A stretch of DNA of 6,527 nt from Candidatus Wukongarchaeum yapensis. GTDB lineage: Archaea > Asgardarchaeota > Wukongarchaeia > Wukongarchaeales > Wukongarchaeaceae. Position 1 is the first letter of the stretch. Each line of letters begins with the position of its first letter. Shown here piece after piece: positions 1 to 6,527 of the stretch. The position numbers and the translations under genes are program-made. The stretch is from positions 1 to 6,527 of the forward strand of contig JAEOSI010000130.1 of NCBI GenBank assembly GCA_016840425.1, read 5' to 3'. The notes below the pieces were generated by a model, which made no database searches, had not been told where the DNA came from, and was given only the letters and a program-made list of their open reading frames with translations.

Positions 1-23
1 GGTTTGTTAAGGTTGAAGGAATC

Positions 24-590
24 TTGATATTAGAGACCAAGCTTGAAGAAGTAACGGTAAGATGGGGGAAACTTCGTACATTTTTATTGCACACTATCAG
101 CCTTATTTTAATAGTTTTTCCTGCTTATGCTATTTTCATAACACTGGAGGAAATTTCTCCTCCTAACGGATTTTTGGACCTATTTTTCATTTATGGGGCT
201 ATTTTGTGCATAATGCTTTTTCCGATACAGTTAGGTTTGCAGTTCGGCGCCCTATCTTTAAGGGAGACGCCCCCGCTACTGCTTGCCTACTATTTTCAAC
301 ATGAAGCGAAGTTGCCTCATGAAATCCTTGACCCTATAAAAAGCCGTATTGGAGCAGTTTCCCTCCTTGGACTTTTGCTTGGGGGTTATGTAGCTTGGCC
401 TCTTTATACGATTCTTGGTATGGTGATTGTTTTTGTTCATTTCTGGCGAGGAGATCCTTCACCTTTAGAGATAGAGCAGATCATTAGACGGTTTTTAAAA
501 GCTATTCCCCCTGTCTTTTTAGCATACCTGTTTTTTACCGCTTTTGCCATAGCTTTTATACAGTGGGGTAGAGGAAAGATTAAGAGATAG
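24..590 (+). CDS. Hypothetical integral membrane protein (~4 TM helices); possibly 5'-truncated by the window
   Basis: 188-aa ORF with four hydrophobic segments (TFLLHTISLILIVFPAYAIFITL; FLDLFFIYGAILCIMLFPIQLGL; IGAVSLLGLLLGGYVAWPLYTILGMVIVFVHFW; PPVFLAYLFFTAFAIAFIQW) and a basic tail. The frame is open back to position 3, so the TTG at 24 may not be the true start. Ends TAG 588-590. No family recognised. Confidence 0.75.
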   Translation: MILETKLEEVTVRWGKLRTFLLHTISLILIVFPAYAIFITLEEISPPNGFLDLFFIYGAILCIMLFPIQLGLQFGALSLRETPPLLLAYYFQHEAKLPHEILDPIKSRIGAVSLLGLLLGGYVAWPLYTILGMVIVFVHFWRGDPSPLEIEQIIRRFLKAIPPVFLAYLFFTAFAIAFIQWGRGKIKR

Positions 591-608: not shown

Positions 609-1493
609 ATGGTTGTCAATAAACTGTATTTTAAGGCCGGCGAAATCGCCTCTAAAGCCTTAAAAGAAGGTATAAAACTTGTAAAGCCTGGGGCAAGCTT
701 GCTTTCAATTTGTGAAACTATAGAAAACCGTATACTAAACCTTGGAGGACGATGCGCTTTTCCTGCTAACATAAGCGTCAACCAGATAGCTGCCCACTAC
801 ACCTCCCCTCCAGAAGACACCGCGAAAATTCCTGAAAAAGGCGTGGTAAAAGTCGATTGTGGAGCACACGTAGACGGCTACCTCTCAGATACTGCTAAAT
901 CAGTTGCCCTCAACCCAGAATACGAGCCTCTAGTAGAAACGGCTGAAAAGGCTTTAAATTCCGCGATTAAATGGGTTAGAAGTGGAGTAAAAATATCAAA
1001 AATCTCCGCAGTAATAGCGCAAACCATAAAAAAACAGGACTTTAAACCGGTAGAGAACCTTACCGGTCACGAAATGAAAAGGTGGAATCTTCACGCAGGC
1101 CTCTCAATCCCTAACATACCTTCCCTATCCACCAACACAAAATTAAGAGAAAATATGGTCATCGCCATCGAACCCTTCGTAACCACTAAAAAAGGCAGAG
1201 GAAGGGTAGAAGCAGGCAAAAACGCTTACATCTACAAAGTAGATAATAAGAGGAGAAGAGATCCGTCGGTAAAAAATTTTGTAGAAAAATACAAGACATT
1301 GCCTTTTGCTTCAAGATGGGTTGTGAAAGATTTTGGAAAACCCGCCCTAAACGAGGTTAAAAAACTTGTTGAAAAAGGAGTCCTAATTTCATACCCTGTC
1401 TTAAAAGAGATAGGCAGGGGGATAGTAGCCCAAGCAGAACACACATTAGTTATTGATAAAAACAAAGCTTTGGTAACCACTAAAAGAACATAA
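609..1493 (+). CDS. map: Methionine aminopeptidase, type II (archaeal)
   Basis: 294 aa with MetAP motifs FPANISVNQIAAHYT, VKVDCGAHVDGYLSDTA (two metal-binding Asp), NLTGH, AIEPFVT and AQAEHTLVI, plus the type II helical insertion between the EPF and EHT motifs. ATG start with purine-rich AAGGACGAG upstream. Confidence 0.97.
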   Translation: MVVNKLYFKAGEIASKALKEGIKLVKPGASLLSICETIENRILNLGGRCAFPANISVNQIAAHYTSPPEDTAKIPEKGVVKVDCGAHVDGYLSDTAKSVALNPEYEPLVETAEKALNSAIKWVRSGVKISKISAVIAQTIKKQDFKPVENLTGHEMKRWNLHAGLSIPNIPSLSTNTKLRENMVIAIEPFVTTKKGRGRVEAGKNAYIYKVDNKRRRDPSVKNFVEKYKTLPFASRWVVKDFGKPALNEVKKLVEKGVLISYPVLKEIGRGIVAQAEHTLVIDKNKALVTTKRT

Positions 1494-1538: not shown

Positions 1539-3680
1539 TTGCCTTTTGGGGCTGTGTCATTTTTGAACGAAAATATCCTCCTTGAGCACATGCACGGATA
1601 CCAGCCGCGTCGCATAGTCGACGCTTTTTTAGGGGTTGAGCGGGAGAATCTCAGCGAAAAAGAATTGAACCTTACAAAATATGTGAGGGATAAAGCTGTA
1701 AACGGTCCTAACTGGTTTGAAATAGTTTTAAAACCTGGATCAGTCTATGATGAGATCATAAACTTGTTACCTGAAAGATCCTTAAACGTTGAACCTATAA
1801 CCCTTAAAGCCCTTCAAGAGCTCAATTCCCCCGTTTTTAATCGCCTTCTTAAGCTCATTCTCAATAATGAAGCTACAATTGCTTGTACTACTTATTCTCA
1901 TCCAATAATGCCTGTAGCGATTTCACAATCACCTTTTGACGTTTACATAAATCTTTCTTGGAGCATTGATTTTTACTTTGAGCTTTTCTGGAAAAAATTA
2001 TGGGAAAAAGAACAAATCTTTCCCCTAATTTTTTTCTGGTTGCCTGAATGCGCTGTAAACTCAGAAACAATCAACTTAATAGTAGACACTATAAGGAAAA
2101 AAACTATAGAATGGGGATGGGAAAAAGAAGTTTTCATAATCTTCATACTAGATGAATACCAGGTCGAAAATAATTATAGAAGCGGAATCTACAAACTACA
2201 TAGTGAGCAAATCCCATCTGAAATTTACCCTTTCGTCCTATTAAGGGATCATGCTTTTTCAGATGCTATATCTTTTTCCAGCAATTTAGGCGTAATAATC
2301 CATGCTTTAAAAATGGCTATATCTACCGGAATGGATCTTGTGGTGACTGCTTCTGATGCCGAAAACTTTGGAGGAAACTACGATCCTTGGAAACCGGTAC
2401 TCTTTGAAGAACTTAGTGAAAGGATGATAAACACTACTTTAAGCGATATAGCCACTATTGTGAGAAGGCTTCAAGCCTCCGAAGCGTTCCTAGAATACAA
2501 ATTCTGGGGTCGATTAGAGAACCTGTCAGAAGCAAAAATTTTTGAAAACTCTGCCTGGTCAGATTTTGGACACTGGTCTATTCTTAGCGAAGATGGTGGC
2601 TTCATAGTTTCCAGAAGAGTAGGCGGATTAATGAGGTGGACCGGTAAAGTAAGAGCAAAGTCAGGAAAAACTTTAGAAGAGACATACTTTCTGATCCATG
2701 AACGATTTAATCCATACGAACCCAGACGTGAACTAAGATTAACTAACTCCATATGGAAGATCGCTTTTAATCACATCTCAGCAGAAGTAAGGAAGTTTAT
2801 CAGTTTTCACGTTTGCGAATTCATAAAAAATCTCCTTAAAAACGAATATGCCACAGAAAATGTCCTTAAAAAATATTGGAAAGTTGCCTTAAAGATAGAA
2901 AATGAAGAAGATTTTCTCAAAAATCTTGAAGATGAAGAAATAATACGCCCTCTCTCTGAAGAGGAAAGAGAGGCCTTTAAAAGAGGATTGAGAGCCTATA
3001 AAATGGCCTCCCAAGACTCCTGTATAAGCTGCCCTACCTTTTGGAGCGATGTCGAAACAGAACTAACATGGACATCTCTCGCCCTATCTGCGGCAGGAAT
3101 GGTGGAACTTTCATGGATGTTTAAGCTTTTAAATGAAGAAGATCTCCTCAAAAAATCGATTTCAAAATACTCTCAACTTTTTTTAGAGCTTGGAGAAAAC
3201 AGCTATTGGAAAGAGTTTACACTCCGCCACAAAATGCCTCTAGATCTCCTCCTATCAATTCTTAAAAAAAGGGCAGCAAAAAGAGGCTACTCTCTTGAAG
3301 ACGAAATCCAAGAGATCATACATGCAGAAGATGTGCTGCAAGAGAAAGACCTCAAAAAAAGAGCCGTACAAATGGCGGAAAAATTGTTTAAAGCAGCCCT
3401 TGACTGGAGGGAAAATCTTCGCGAAGAAGACGTAAACCCCTACATAATACTTGTCGAAATATTTCGCGCTTTTGGAGATTATAAAAAAGCAGGCGAATAT
3501 ATAGACCAAGCAATATGGTATGAATGGGAAAAAAGCATAGCCCCCCTCTTTAAAAAAACAAAAAACATTTTCCAAAGAGTAGGCCTCCTCCACGCAAAAC
3601 ATCTACCCTCCTATTTTGAAAAAATAAAAAAAGTAGGAGAAAAAGAAGAAGAAAAAGTAGACATACGCACAGGCTGGTAA
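1539..3680 (+). CDS. Glycoside hydrolase family 57, probably of the maltose-forming (PF0870-like) amylase subgroup, cytoplasmic
   Basis: GH57 conserved regions in the expected order: HMHGYQP (1587-1607), TTYSHPIMP, FWLPE (putative nucleophile Glu170, codon 2046-2048), FILDEYQ, RDHAFSDAISF, ASDAEN (putative acid/base Asp273, codon 2355-2357), SAWSD, then MRWTG, IWKIAF and SCPTFW. No signal peptide. The true start may be the TTG at 1563, 8 nt after GGGGCTG. Confidence 0.88.
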   Translation: MPFGAVSFLNENILLEHMHGYQPRRIVDAFLGVERENLSEKELNLTKYVRDKAVNGPNWFEIVLKPGSVYDEIINLLPERSLNVEPITLKALQELNSPVFNRLLKLILNNEATIACTTYSHPIMPVAISQSPFDVYINLSWSIDFYFELFWKKLWEKEQIFPLIFFWLPECAVNSETINLIVDTIRKKTIEWGWEKEVFIIFILDEYQVENNYRSGIYKLHSEQIPSEIYPFVLLRDHAFSDAISFSSNLGVIIHALKMAISTGMDLVVTASDAENFGGNYDPWKPVLFEELSERMINTTLSDIATIVRRLQASEAFLEYKFWGRLENLSEAKIFENSAWSDFGHWSILSEDGGFIVSRRVGGLMRWTGKVRAKSGKTLEETYFLIHERFNPYEPRRELRLTNSIWKIAFNHISAEVRKFISFHVCEFIKNLLKNEYATENVLKKYWKVALKIENEEDFLKNLEDEEIIRPLSEEEREAFKRGLRAYKMASQDSCISCPTFWSDVETELTWTSLALSAAGMVELSWMFKLLNEEDLLKKSISKYSQLFLELGENSYWKEFTLRHKMPLDLLLSILKKRAAKRGYSLEDEIQEIIHAEDVLQEKDLKKRAVQMAEKLFKAALDWRENLREEDVNPYIILVEIFRAFGDYKKAGEYIDQAIWYEWEKSIAPLFKKTKNIFQRVGLLHAKHLPSYFEKIKKVGEKEEEKVDIRTGW

Positions 3681-3748
3681 TATTCTAACACTTTCCCCCA
3701 TCCCTCCTCCTATATAATGGAAAACTTAATCTTTTTAGTTATAATTTT

Positions 3749-3895
3749 CTATTTCCTTTCTCTGAGTCTTTTTATAAGTTCATTAGCCTTCCTTACTTGT
3801 TTTTCAGCCCGTTTAGACATCTCTAAAATAAACTTTTTATGCTCTTTATCAATAGCCTGTGACGTTTTATCTCCTAATCCTTTTGGATAACTCAA
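3749..3895 (-). CDS. Small basic helical protein, 48 aa (not in ORF track): MSYPKGLGDKTSQAIDKEHKKFILEMSKRAEKQVRKANELIKRLRERK
   Basis: TTG at 3895-3893 lies 5 nt downstream of a perfect SD (AAGGAGGTGA, 3910-3901). 48 sense codons end at TAG 3751-3749. It fills an otherwise empty intergenic gap. Confidence 0.75.
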   Translation of the reverse strand: MSYPKGLGDKTSQAIDKEHKKFILEMSKRAEKQVRKANELIKRLRERK

Positions 3896-3900
3896 ACAAG

Positions 3901-3910
3901 TCACCTCCTT
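3901..3910 (-). promoter_or_regulatory. Shine-Dalgarno sequence AAGGAGGTGA for the 48-aa ORF
   Basis: The + strand reads TCACCTCCTT, a 10-nt match to the canonical 16S anti-SD, at canonical spacing from the TTG. Confidence 0.8.
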
Positions 3911-3940
3911 ATTATCTAACCTGCAATTACACTAGTAATC

Positions 3941-3948
3941 ATATAAAA
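3941..3948 (-). promoter_or_regulatory. Candidate archaeal TATA box (TTTTATAT) for the 48-aa ORF
   Basis: Lies ~31 nt upstream of the SD, which would put a TSS near 3915-3920. No convincing purine-rich BRE, and the region is AT-rich, so a chance match is possible. Confidence 0.35.
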
Positions 3949-4170
3949 CAAATAGCGCTTGATTAGGTTAAAAAGATTCTGGTAATTCTTTGCTCAAAAA
4001 CTTCTATTTACTAATAGTCTTTTCCATTCATAATATCATAATTTATAGTTTCCTATCTTCGATAAATAATAAATATCTTTTCGGTATATATTCATAATAA
4101 TTACATAATGTTTCCTTAGGGGGATAATTTTAGGTTTTGGAAACAGGAAAAATATGAAGGGATTAATTTT

Positions 4171-5064
4171 TTGAAAAAAGAAATCATTTTGCCTCCAAAA
4201 GTACTAGTTGATGTGACTAGGGAGATTACAGATACCATTTTATATGGTAGTCCTGACCCTAATAATCAAAACGCTCAAATTCAAAAACTAATAGGTGTTA
4301 GGCCAAATACCAAAAATGCGCGTTGCGAGCGTAGGATTGAAGATATTCTTTTTACGGATAGAAATACTTATACTGAATGGTTAAAATCTGTTGGAAGTTT
4401 TGATTCTGAAGTTTTTAGTCAAATACTGGAAGAAACAATGTTTGAAGTGCTAAATTTCGAATTCGGGAAAAAAATTGCAAACGAAATAATAAACCACTTA
4501 TTACCCCCGGTGAAAACCCTTTATTTTTTGAACGATGATGTTTTTACAAACTATATTTATGACAAATACGTGAAACTAACACCTTATCCCAACGAATACT
4601 GGCAAAAAATCTCGCGAAATCTCTTAGAATTTTGGAAAAATATAGAGAAAAACCAGTCCCAATATCCAAAAAAAGCTTTACAAGTCAGTGGTCCTACCCA
4701 CTTTTCTCTATGGTTACATGAAAACATATTCAAGGGAAAAGTTTTCCGATCTATTAACTGGGAATCTTTAAGGTATGATGAATGTGGAAATTTCTATAAA
4801 AAACACCCCCAAGGGCTCCCTATATGGAACCCCTATTATCCATACCCTCTAGCAAATAATATCTGGGGTAAAATGAAACAAGACATTCGCGGGATTTTAA
4901 TCGTTTATAAGCTGGAAGTTATCGCTATAAAATTTCCGAAAAAATTTGAAAAATCTCGGGGGTATATAACGTTTAAAGAACTAGAAAAACGCCCATCTCT
5001 CGAAGAAATAATTCTAATGAACCAAAATAACCTAGAACCTTACATACCTAGCGAGTTTCTCTAA
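4171..5064 (+). CDS. Hypothetical protein, 297 aa; C-terminal third has a pattern reminiscent of an ADP-ribosyltransferase fold
   Basis: Long ORF, TTG start ~8 nt after GAAGGGA, TAA stop. No family recognised with certainty; the ART-like reading is inference only. Confidence 0.8.
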   Translation: MKKEIILPPKVLVDVTREITDTILYGSPDPNNQNAQIQKLIGVRPNTKNARCERRIEDILFTDRNTYTEWLKSVGSFDSEVFSQILEETMFEVLNFEFGKKIANEIINHLLPPVKTLYFLNDDVFTNYIYDKYVKLTPYPNEYWQKISRNLLEFWKNIEKNQSQYPKKALQVSGPTHFSLWLHENIFKGKVFRSINWESLRYDECGNFYKKHPQGLPIWNPYYPYPLANNIWGKMKQDIRGILIVYKLEVIAIKFPKKFEKSRGYITFKELEKRPSLEEIILMNQNNLEPYIPSEFL

Positions 5065-5143: not shown

Positions 5144-6067
5144 ATGAGTTTTTTCCAAGATAAACTTCGAAAATCTCCCTCGAAATTAAGTGAAAATCAA
5201 GAACTCCTTTTAGAACGAATAAAGTCGCGGGAAAAACGCGTTCAAGAAGCAAAAAACACCCTATCAAACGTTTTTGAAAACTTCAAAAAAGAAAAAAAGA
5301 AAGAGATTACCGAAATCAGCGGGCCTTTTAAAGTAAACGAAGTAGATCACTATATTCTTGTCGCTTTTAAACGGAAGTTTTTAGGCAGAAAGGGAAATCT
5401 AACCCGTATAGAAATGGTAAAAAATGATGGCGAGATAGTGAAGGAGGAGGAAACCGCAAAAAAAATCTTCTTAACAAGCCTTTTCCAAGCTCTTATACAA
5501 AATTTTCCCGTCCACATGATAATTCGCGATGAACTTAACAAAGACTTATTTTTCATTAAAAAATTCTCATCACTGATTGAAAATGGTCATCTCACAATAC
5601 AAATGGGGCAAGAAATTCTCAATATCACATTAAGCAATGAACTTTTAAATCCTGAAGAAGAAAAACAGTTTATGGTTGAAACCTGTAAAAACTTTCACTC
5701 TTCTGTTGATAACCTACTATCTTCCATTGCAGAATATTCAGAAGTTATAGAGAAACTTTCAGACTTAGAGATAAATATTCTAAGCGATCCTTCCAACGAA
5801 GATATCAACAAGTGGTTGAAATTAAAAGAAGAACAAATTTCAATGGTAGAAAACCTAGAAAAAAATAGAAACGATTATATCTCCTCATCAAAGAAGGTTT
5901 TAGAAAAAATTTCCACCTCAGAAAATATACATCTAATAAACAAAATCTTTGAAAATTCAAAATCCTTCCTAGACCAGGTTGAAAATGCTTCCCATGAACT
6001 ATCAAATTTCATAATACAAATAAATCAAGTGGTTGAAAATGCTCTTATGCCTTTATGGCAAAGATAA
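5144..6067 (+). CDS. Hypothetical coiled-coil-rich protein, 307 aa
   Basis: ATG to TAA. An N-terminal charged helix, a short beta-rich segment (FKVNEVDHYILVAFKRKFLGRKGNLTRIEMVKNDGEIV) and long E/K/N/S/L/I-rich amphipathic helices C-terminally. No family recognised. Confidence 0.8.
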   Translation: MSFFQDKLRKSPSKLSENQELLLERIKSREKRVQEAKNTLSNVFENFKKEKKKEITEISGPFKVNEVDHYILVAFKRKFLGRKGNLTRIEMVKNDGEIVKEEETAKKIFLTSLFQALIQNFPVHMIIRDELNKDLFFIKKFSSLIENGHLTIQMGQEILNITLSNELLNPEEEKQFMVETCKNFHSSVDNLLSSIAEYSEVIEKLSDLEINILSDPSNEDINKWLKLKEEQISMVENLEKNRNDYISSSKKVLEKISTSENIHLINKIFENSKSFLDQVENASHELSNFIIQINQVVENALMPLWQR

Positions 6068-6082
6068 AAATTTAACCATTTT

Positions 6083-6526
6083 CTAAGATGTTTTTCTTTT
6101 CCATCCGTATTTTATTTCATCAAATAGAGGAAAGTTAGAAATTTTGGCTGTATATCCTTTTTCCCTTATTAAAATCGCTATTTCCGTTCCTTCTTCTGCA
6201 TATTGAGGTTTAACATAAGCCATACCAGCCCCCCGCTTTACTGTAGGACCAAAAATACCGCTAGTAACCTCCCCAACAACCTTTTCATCCTTTTTTATTT
6301 TCTATCCTTGTCTAGGGTTTGGTCCCTTTTTTTCCATGATAAAACCTATACGAGTTTGTTGAATTGGTTCCTTCTTTTTCCTCTCTAACGTTACTTTTCC
6401 CACAAACCATTCTTTATCCATGGAAACAAAAACAGGAACATCTAAACGCGCTTCTATTGGTGTAGTTTTTTCATCAATATCAGTACCATAAAGCACAAGA
6501 CCTGCTTCAAGCCTAAGGGTATCCCT
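6083..6526 (-). CDS. gcvT: Glycine cleavage system T protein (aminomethyltransferase), 3' part; 5'-truncated by window, with in-frame TAG at 6304-6302
   Basis: Translation RDTLRLEAGLVLYGTDIDEKTTPIEA...FVGK...RIGFIMEKKGPNPRQG*KIKKDEKVVGEVTSGIFGPTVKRGAGMAYVKPQYAEEGTEIAILIREKGYTAKISNFPLFDEIKYGWKRKTS*. It contains the GcvT signature RDTLRLEAG and the C-terminal-domain motifs GEVTSG, F-x-PT and MAYV. Terminal TAG at 6085-6083. Whether the gene is functional depends on the internal TAG. Confidence 0.93.
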
Positions 6527-6527
6527 A

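Follow-up and report, generated by a model that had tools for sequence, protein, structure and literature searches.

A probable nonsense allele of gcvT on a minor strain haplotype of Candidatus Wukongarchaeum yapensis

The gcvT remnant and its surroundings on contig C129

The window analysed here is the whole of contig C129 (6527 bp), which belongs to a 2.16-Mb assembly of 277 contigs (G000; 92% complete, GC content 38%) and carries at its right-hand end, on the minus strand, the 3′ portion of gcvT with an internal TAG ahead of the normal stop codon (Table 1). Across this site the minus strand reads CCT AGA CAA GGA TAG AAA ATA, corresponding to the protein PRQG*KIKKDEKVVGEVTSG. The original prediction had placed the TAG in this frame, with 72 codons following it that keep recognizable GcvT motifs, and translation and Pfam searches bore out its coordinates, strand, codon count and motifs alike. 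The piece upstream of the TAG matches PF01571 (GCV_T) with E 1.8e-8 at profile positions 225–253 of 255, and the piece downstream matches PF08669 (GCV_T_C) with E 8.1e-17, so that one domain lies on either side of the TAG; moreover, the downstream piece, aligned via the C264 allele described below, matches the C-terminus of the Pyrococcus horikoshii GcvT of known structure (1V5V).

The accompanying description of the gene as otherwise intact could not be upheld, since the window covers just the last 147 of about 384 gcvT codons, the 5′ 60% of the gene lying beyond the contig end and being unassembled for this allele, and since the same 5′ part is frameshifted in C264. The genome has a single gcvT locus, and among the alleles of the species seen here there is none with an uninterrupted frame of ~380 codons, a nonsense codon, a frameshift or a deletion being found instead.

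Table 1. Positions of the features discussed, on C129 unless another contig is named.
Feature	Position	Strand	Description
Overlap with contig C225	1-144		Exact reverse-complement overlap
195-aa ORF	3-590	+	No Pfam match
M24 metallopeptidase ORF	609-1493		Precedes the 713-aa ORF
713-aa ORF	1539-3680	+	Maltose-forming alpha-amylase-like (PSMA-like N and C) and GH57 domains
Intergenic region	3681-4170		490 bp, AT-rich
51-aa ORF	3749-3904	-	Inside the intergenic region; GTG start, TAG stop
297-aa ORF	4171-5064	+	No Pfam match
307-aa ORF	5144-6067	+	No Pfam match
Strain-variant tail of C129	5457..6527		Second haplotype versus C264:1-1071 (blastn within the assembly)
Normal gcvT stop TAG	6083..6085	-	Same place in C264 and G001
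gcvT part after the internal TAG	6086..6301	-	72 sense codons, C-terminal barrel domain
Internal TAG	6302..6304	-	From TAC (Tyr), C-to-G at the third codon position
gcvT fragment before the internal TAG	6305..6526	-	74 codons, ending at the contig edge; end of the folate-binding GCV_T domain
C129-specific SNPs around the TAG	6249, 6254, 6272, 6311, 6314	+ (numbering)	
gcvPA/gcvPB deletion junction	C238 about 1174-1219 versus G001:C5 4304-9904		Flanks joined

Outside gcvT, the ORFs of 297 and 307 aa have conserved counterparts in the same-genus Hodarchaeota genome G001 and in the NCBI assembly GCA_030587675.2, the 307-aa ORF being rich in Glu, Lys, Ile and Asn and the 51-aa ORF in Lys, Glu and Arg. 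The 195-aa ORF, gcvT and the 51-aa ORF are the three in the window that end in TAG, as had been pointed out in the original prediction. Scanned against Rfam with E values up to 0.1, the whole window gave no match.

Strain haplotypes and the codon at the TAG position

The tail of C129 in which the internal TAG lies has a counterpart elsewhere in the same assembly, window 5457–6527 aligning by blastn to C264:1–1071 with 97.3% identity, 29 substitutions and 0 gaps, while 5′ of position 5457 C129 is identical to the main haplotype. A contig from a JGI metagenome, L020, matches C264 at 100% identity and then runs into the body of C129 without further differences. L020 thus links C264 to the C129 body, which makes C264 the main haplotype; the final 1071 bases of C129 are the tip of a variant strain. 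The 29 SNPs of this tail are spread evenly, at 2.7–2.8%, over two genes, and 12 of the 19 that fall in the comparable part are common to contigs of three other studies. Judged by this pattern of substitutions, the tail is a coherent and partly corroborated haplotype rather than a set of scattered errors. In the assembly the two parallel 1071-base stretches form a strain bubble, and the far end of C264 overlaps contig C39 by 144 bases.

At the codon that reads TAG in C129, the C264 allele has TAC (Tyr), and the same TAC is found in L020 and in G001, where gcvT is uninterrupted and 384 codons long. The comparison with relatives suggested at the outset returned Tyr in these three sequences, and TAC is the ancestral codon, with TAG derived on the C129 haplotype. 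Most of the differences between the two haplotypes in gcvT share this polarity, 10 of the 12 being derived on the C129 side and 7 of those 10 being non-synonymous. We considered pN/pS between the haplotypes as a sign of relaxed selection on gcvT and set it aside, since the value for gcvT (0.54; 8 non-synonymous and 4 synonymous differences) shows no clear excess over that for the adjacent ORF (0.45; 11 and 6), the counts being too small to tell the two apart. The statement that GcvT typically has P-R-x-G-Y at this place holds in part: the closest relatives keep this Tyr, as do the GcvT proteins of known structure 1V5V and 1YX2, but among more distant Asgard GcvTs the residue varies between Y, F and L.

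Metagenomes from marsh, mangrove, sediment and marine sediment contain contigs that are close to this stretch, and the TAG allele had no match in any other dataset searched. With a haplotype-specific 126-nt probe (window 6215–6340), one of eight sampled words was found, in one estuary run only; scanning metagenome contigs with a TAN-degenerate pattern yielded one contig, with the TAC allele, and no TAG allele. The TAG allele was likewise absent from the contigs of runs X1, X2, X3 and X6 that could be placed on C264, of which X6 lists the TAC allele only and X1, X2 and X3 are uninformative, the TAG position falling inside a 1016-bp deletion that they carry (see below). That words of the TAG allele occur in no public run is probably explained by the site falling inside this deletion.

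Further null alleles and the glycine cleavage partners

Two further lesions of gcvT were found in this species. In C264, a run of six A residues at 1393–1398 of the minus strand, against five in G001 (G001, TTCAAAAAC; C264, TTCAAAAAAC), produces a +1 frameshift that divides the gene into ORFs of 133 and 260 aa. This A6 allele recurs in L020, in GCA_030587675.2 (L025), where the gene is annotated as two of 132 and 260 aa, and in runs X6 and X3, from two studies, whose contigs cross the site without a gap. The second lesion was seen in contigs of X1, X2 and X3, which come from three studies (of marsh, mangrove and sediment) and join C264 position 729 directly to 1746. This junction corresponds to a 1016-bp deletion (C264 730–1745) that leaves about 12 5′ and 34 3′ codons of gcvT, has 4 bases of microhomology at the joint and lies in contigs that are 97–99% identical to C264.

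The partners of GcvT are also affected. The original prediction had proposed verifying that gcvH and gcvP are intact, and we found the former intact, at C238:1207–1620, and the latter missing: the P-protein domain GDC-P (PF02347) has no match in the 92%-complete G000 genome, while G001 has both gcvPA and gcvPB, in a cluster with the order lplA, gcvH, a GNAT gene, gcvPA, gcvPB, a 201-aa ORF and an NAD-kinase-like gene. In G000, the two sides of a 5.6-kb segment of this cluster both align to contig C238, where only ~45 bp lie between them (Table 1), the missing segment comprising the NAD-kinase-like gene, the 201-aa ORF, gcvPB, gcvPA and the GNAT gene. Because the two flanks are joined in C238, the absence of gcvPA and gcvPB is a deletion seen in sequence and not a mere assembly gap, as far as a 92%-complete assembly and one contig junction can tell. 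The glycine cleavage system thus appears to have been lost in this species, and, with gcvPA and gcvPB deleted and the system dismantled, gcvT would be out of selection. The dihydrolipoamide-dehydrogenase-like gene adjoining gcvT is still open.

Other genes related to this pathway were noted in the genome. Loss of lplA was considered and rejected: the gene is missing beside gcvH in C238, yet two LplA-type genes are present, on C258 and C244. Two pieces resembling GcvH, at C228:1099–1299 and C228:2473–2670, are interrupted by TGA or TAA; outside these, the genome has five GcvH-family genes that are intact.

Stop-codon recoding, sequence error and gene decay

Of the three explanations offered in the original prediction, insertion of pyrrolysine or another form of amber suppression, by which a tRNA with a CUA anticodon would allow full-length GcvT to be made, would account for a frame that stays open for 72 conserved codons past the TAG, and pyrrolysine systems are known in one Asgard class, Sifarchaeia (PMC9723677). 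The genome, nonetheless, gave no sign of the machinery. The profile for the C-terminal domain of PylS (TIGR02367), whose search a Methanosarcina control passes, reached at best 22.2 bits against a cut-off of 178, its matches being other class II synthetases, and that for PylD (TIGR03911), through which pyrrolysine biosynthesis was probed, reached 21.2 bits against a cut-off of 150. MtmB was not found in the genome, and its sole MttB homolog has no internal stop. ARAGORN at default thresholds predicted no tRNA with a CUA anticodon, nor was this anticodon present among the 26 typed Infernal tRNA matches (0/26), in a tRNA set that is incomplete and includes 6 weak, untypable matches. TAG is moreover a regular terminator, ending 261 of the 1570 ORFs of at least 150 aa (17%), and pairs of in-frame ORFs split by one stop involve TAA in 163 cases, TGA in 127 and TAG in 73; this last count is no higher than terminator usage predicts, so TAG is not enriched at interruptions. 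Add to this the TAC codon in the sister haplotype and the congener, and the disappearance of the partners of gcvT, and pyrrolysine insertion or amber suppression becomes highly improbable. Given a genome that is 92% complete, with about 26 tRNAs typed, the machinery could be unassembled, and a suppressor or pyrrolysine tRNA encoded in the remaining 8% might then decode UAG in part and permit synthesis of full-length GcvT; to this version we attach an equally slight probability. Readthrough of the TAG, programmed or leaky, could instead be driven by an RNA hairpin that begins 13 nt past it, with a predicted stability of -20.4 kcal/mol (z -2.15; 4 of 200 shuffles as stable). This z-score is modest, the hairpin lies within coding sequence and its arms bear SNPs between the haplotypes, and the stop is not conserved, every relative examined having a sense codon there, all of which makes readthrough very hard to credit. 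Stop-codon recoding, whether by pyrrolysine or otherwise, is thus not supported as an account of the TAG; with no machinery found, no surplus of internal TAGs and Tyr in the relatives, the results approach the refutation set out in the original prediction, though they do not reach it in full.

An error of sequencing or assembly has more to be said for it, but is still unlikely. The true codon would then be TAC, with TAG arising solely as a consensus artefact at a poorly covered contig tip, and indeed the TAG lies 223 bp from the contig end, within a tail that competes with another haplotype, and its allele is found in no other assembly or run. Against this stand the consistency and partial corroboration of that tail as a haplotype, the a priori rarity of a lone consensus mistake that happens to create a stop, and a gene in which a stop comes as no surprise, since gcvP is missing and other alleles carry a frameshift or a deletion. 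We therefore infer that this base call reflects a true variant. On the sequence data at hand, the internal TAG is most probably a true nonsense allele of a decaying gcvT, changed from TAC and found on a minor strain haplotype. The proposal, also contained in the original prediction, of a recent nonsense mutation one substitution away from a Tyr codon is accordingly the one that fares best, backed by TAC in the relatives, the other null alleles and the loss of gcvPA and gcvPB. Loss of gcvPA and gcvPB would presumably have come first and relaxed selection on gcvT; the gene having become dispensable, strains may then have come to carry different null alleles, namely the frameshift, the large deletion and the TAC-to-TAG change. 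Translation of the C129 allele would end at the TAG, leaving gcvT as a pseudogene.

Some observations on tRNA genes were made along the way. Just 2 or 3 of the about 26 typed tRNA genes are without an intron, several of the introns lie off the canonical 37/38 position according to ARAGORN, and without its intron mode this program finds 4 tRNAs only. Lowering its thresholds to 80–90% raised the number of calls to between 246 and 2235, including many labelled 'Pyl', 'SeC' and 'Stop'; we discarded these as noise, none of them overlapping an Infernal match.

Had recoding proved true, it would have meant amber recoding in an Asgard archaeon of the Heimdall/Hod type, outside the pyrrolysine-type methyltransferases, and it would have been new to see pyrrolysine use or amber suppression in the archaea most closely related to eukaryotes. 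The evidence points instead to routine gene decay. The apparent loss of glycine cleavage nevertheless matters for metabolic reconstruction of these organisms, and the case illustrates that recoding can be mimicked when a contig of a metagenome-assembled genome ends in a strain variant.

Compared with known systems, the locus shares with pyrrolysine decoding (pylTSBCD; Methanosarcina and Asgard Sifarchaeia, PMC9723677) an in-frame UAG beyond which conserved coding sequence continues. It differs in that the searches here turned up no pylS, pylD, tRNA-CUA or methylamine methyltransferase interrupted by TAG, in that the TAG is not conserved in orthologs and in that the gcvT product is not a known pyrrolysine protein. 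Like the GcvT proteins of P. horikoshii (1V5V), which the C264 allele matches with E 3e-43 over the second half of the protein, and of Bacillus subtilis (1YX2), the product has GCV_T and GCV_T_C domains, and their P-R-x-G-Y aligns at the TAG position; unlike them, it is encoded by a broken frame in all alleles of the species seen here. The closest likeness is to ordinary pseudogenisation after loss of a pathway: as in such cases, gcvT is disabled where an ortholog is intact, has several null alleles of independent origin, lacks its partners (gcvPA and gcvPB) and carries a lesion one substitution from the ancestral codon. There is no difference in kind between the two, the special point here being that three null alleles segregate across metagenomes of one species.
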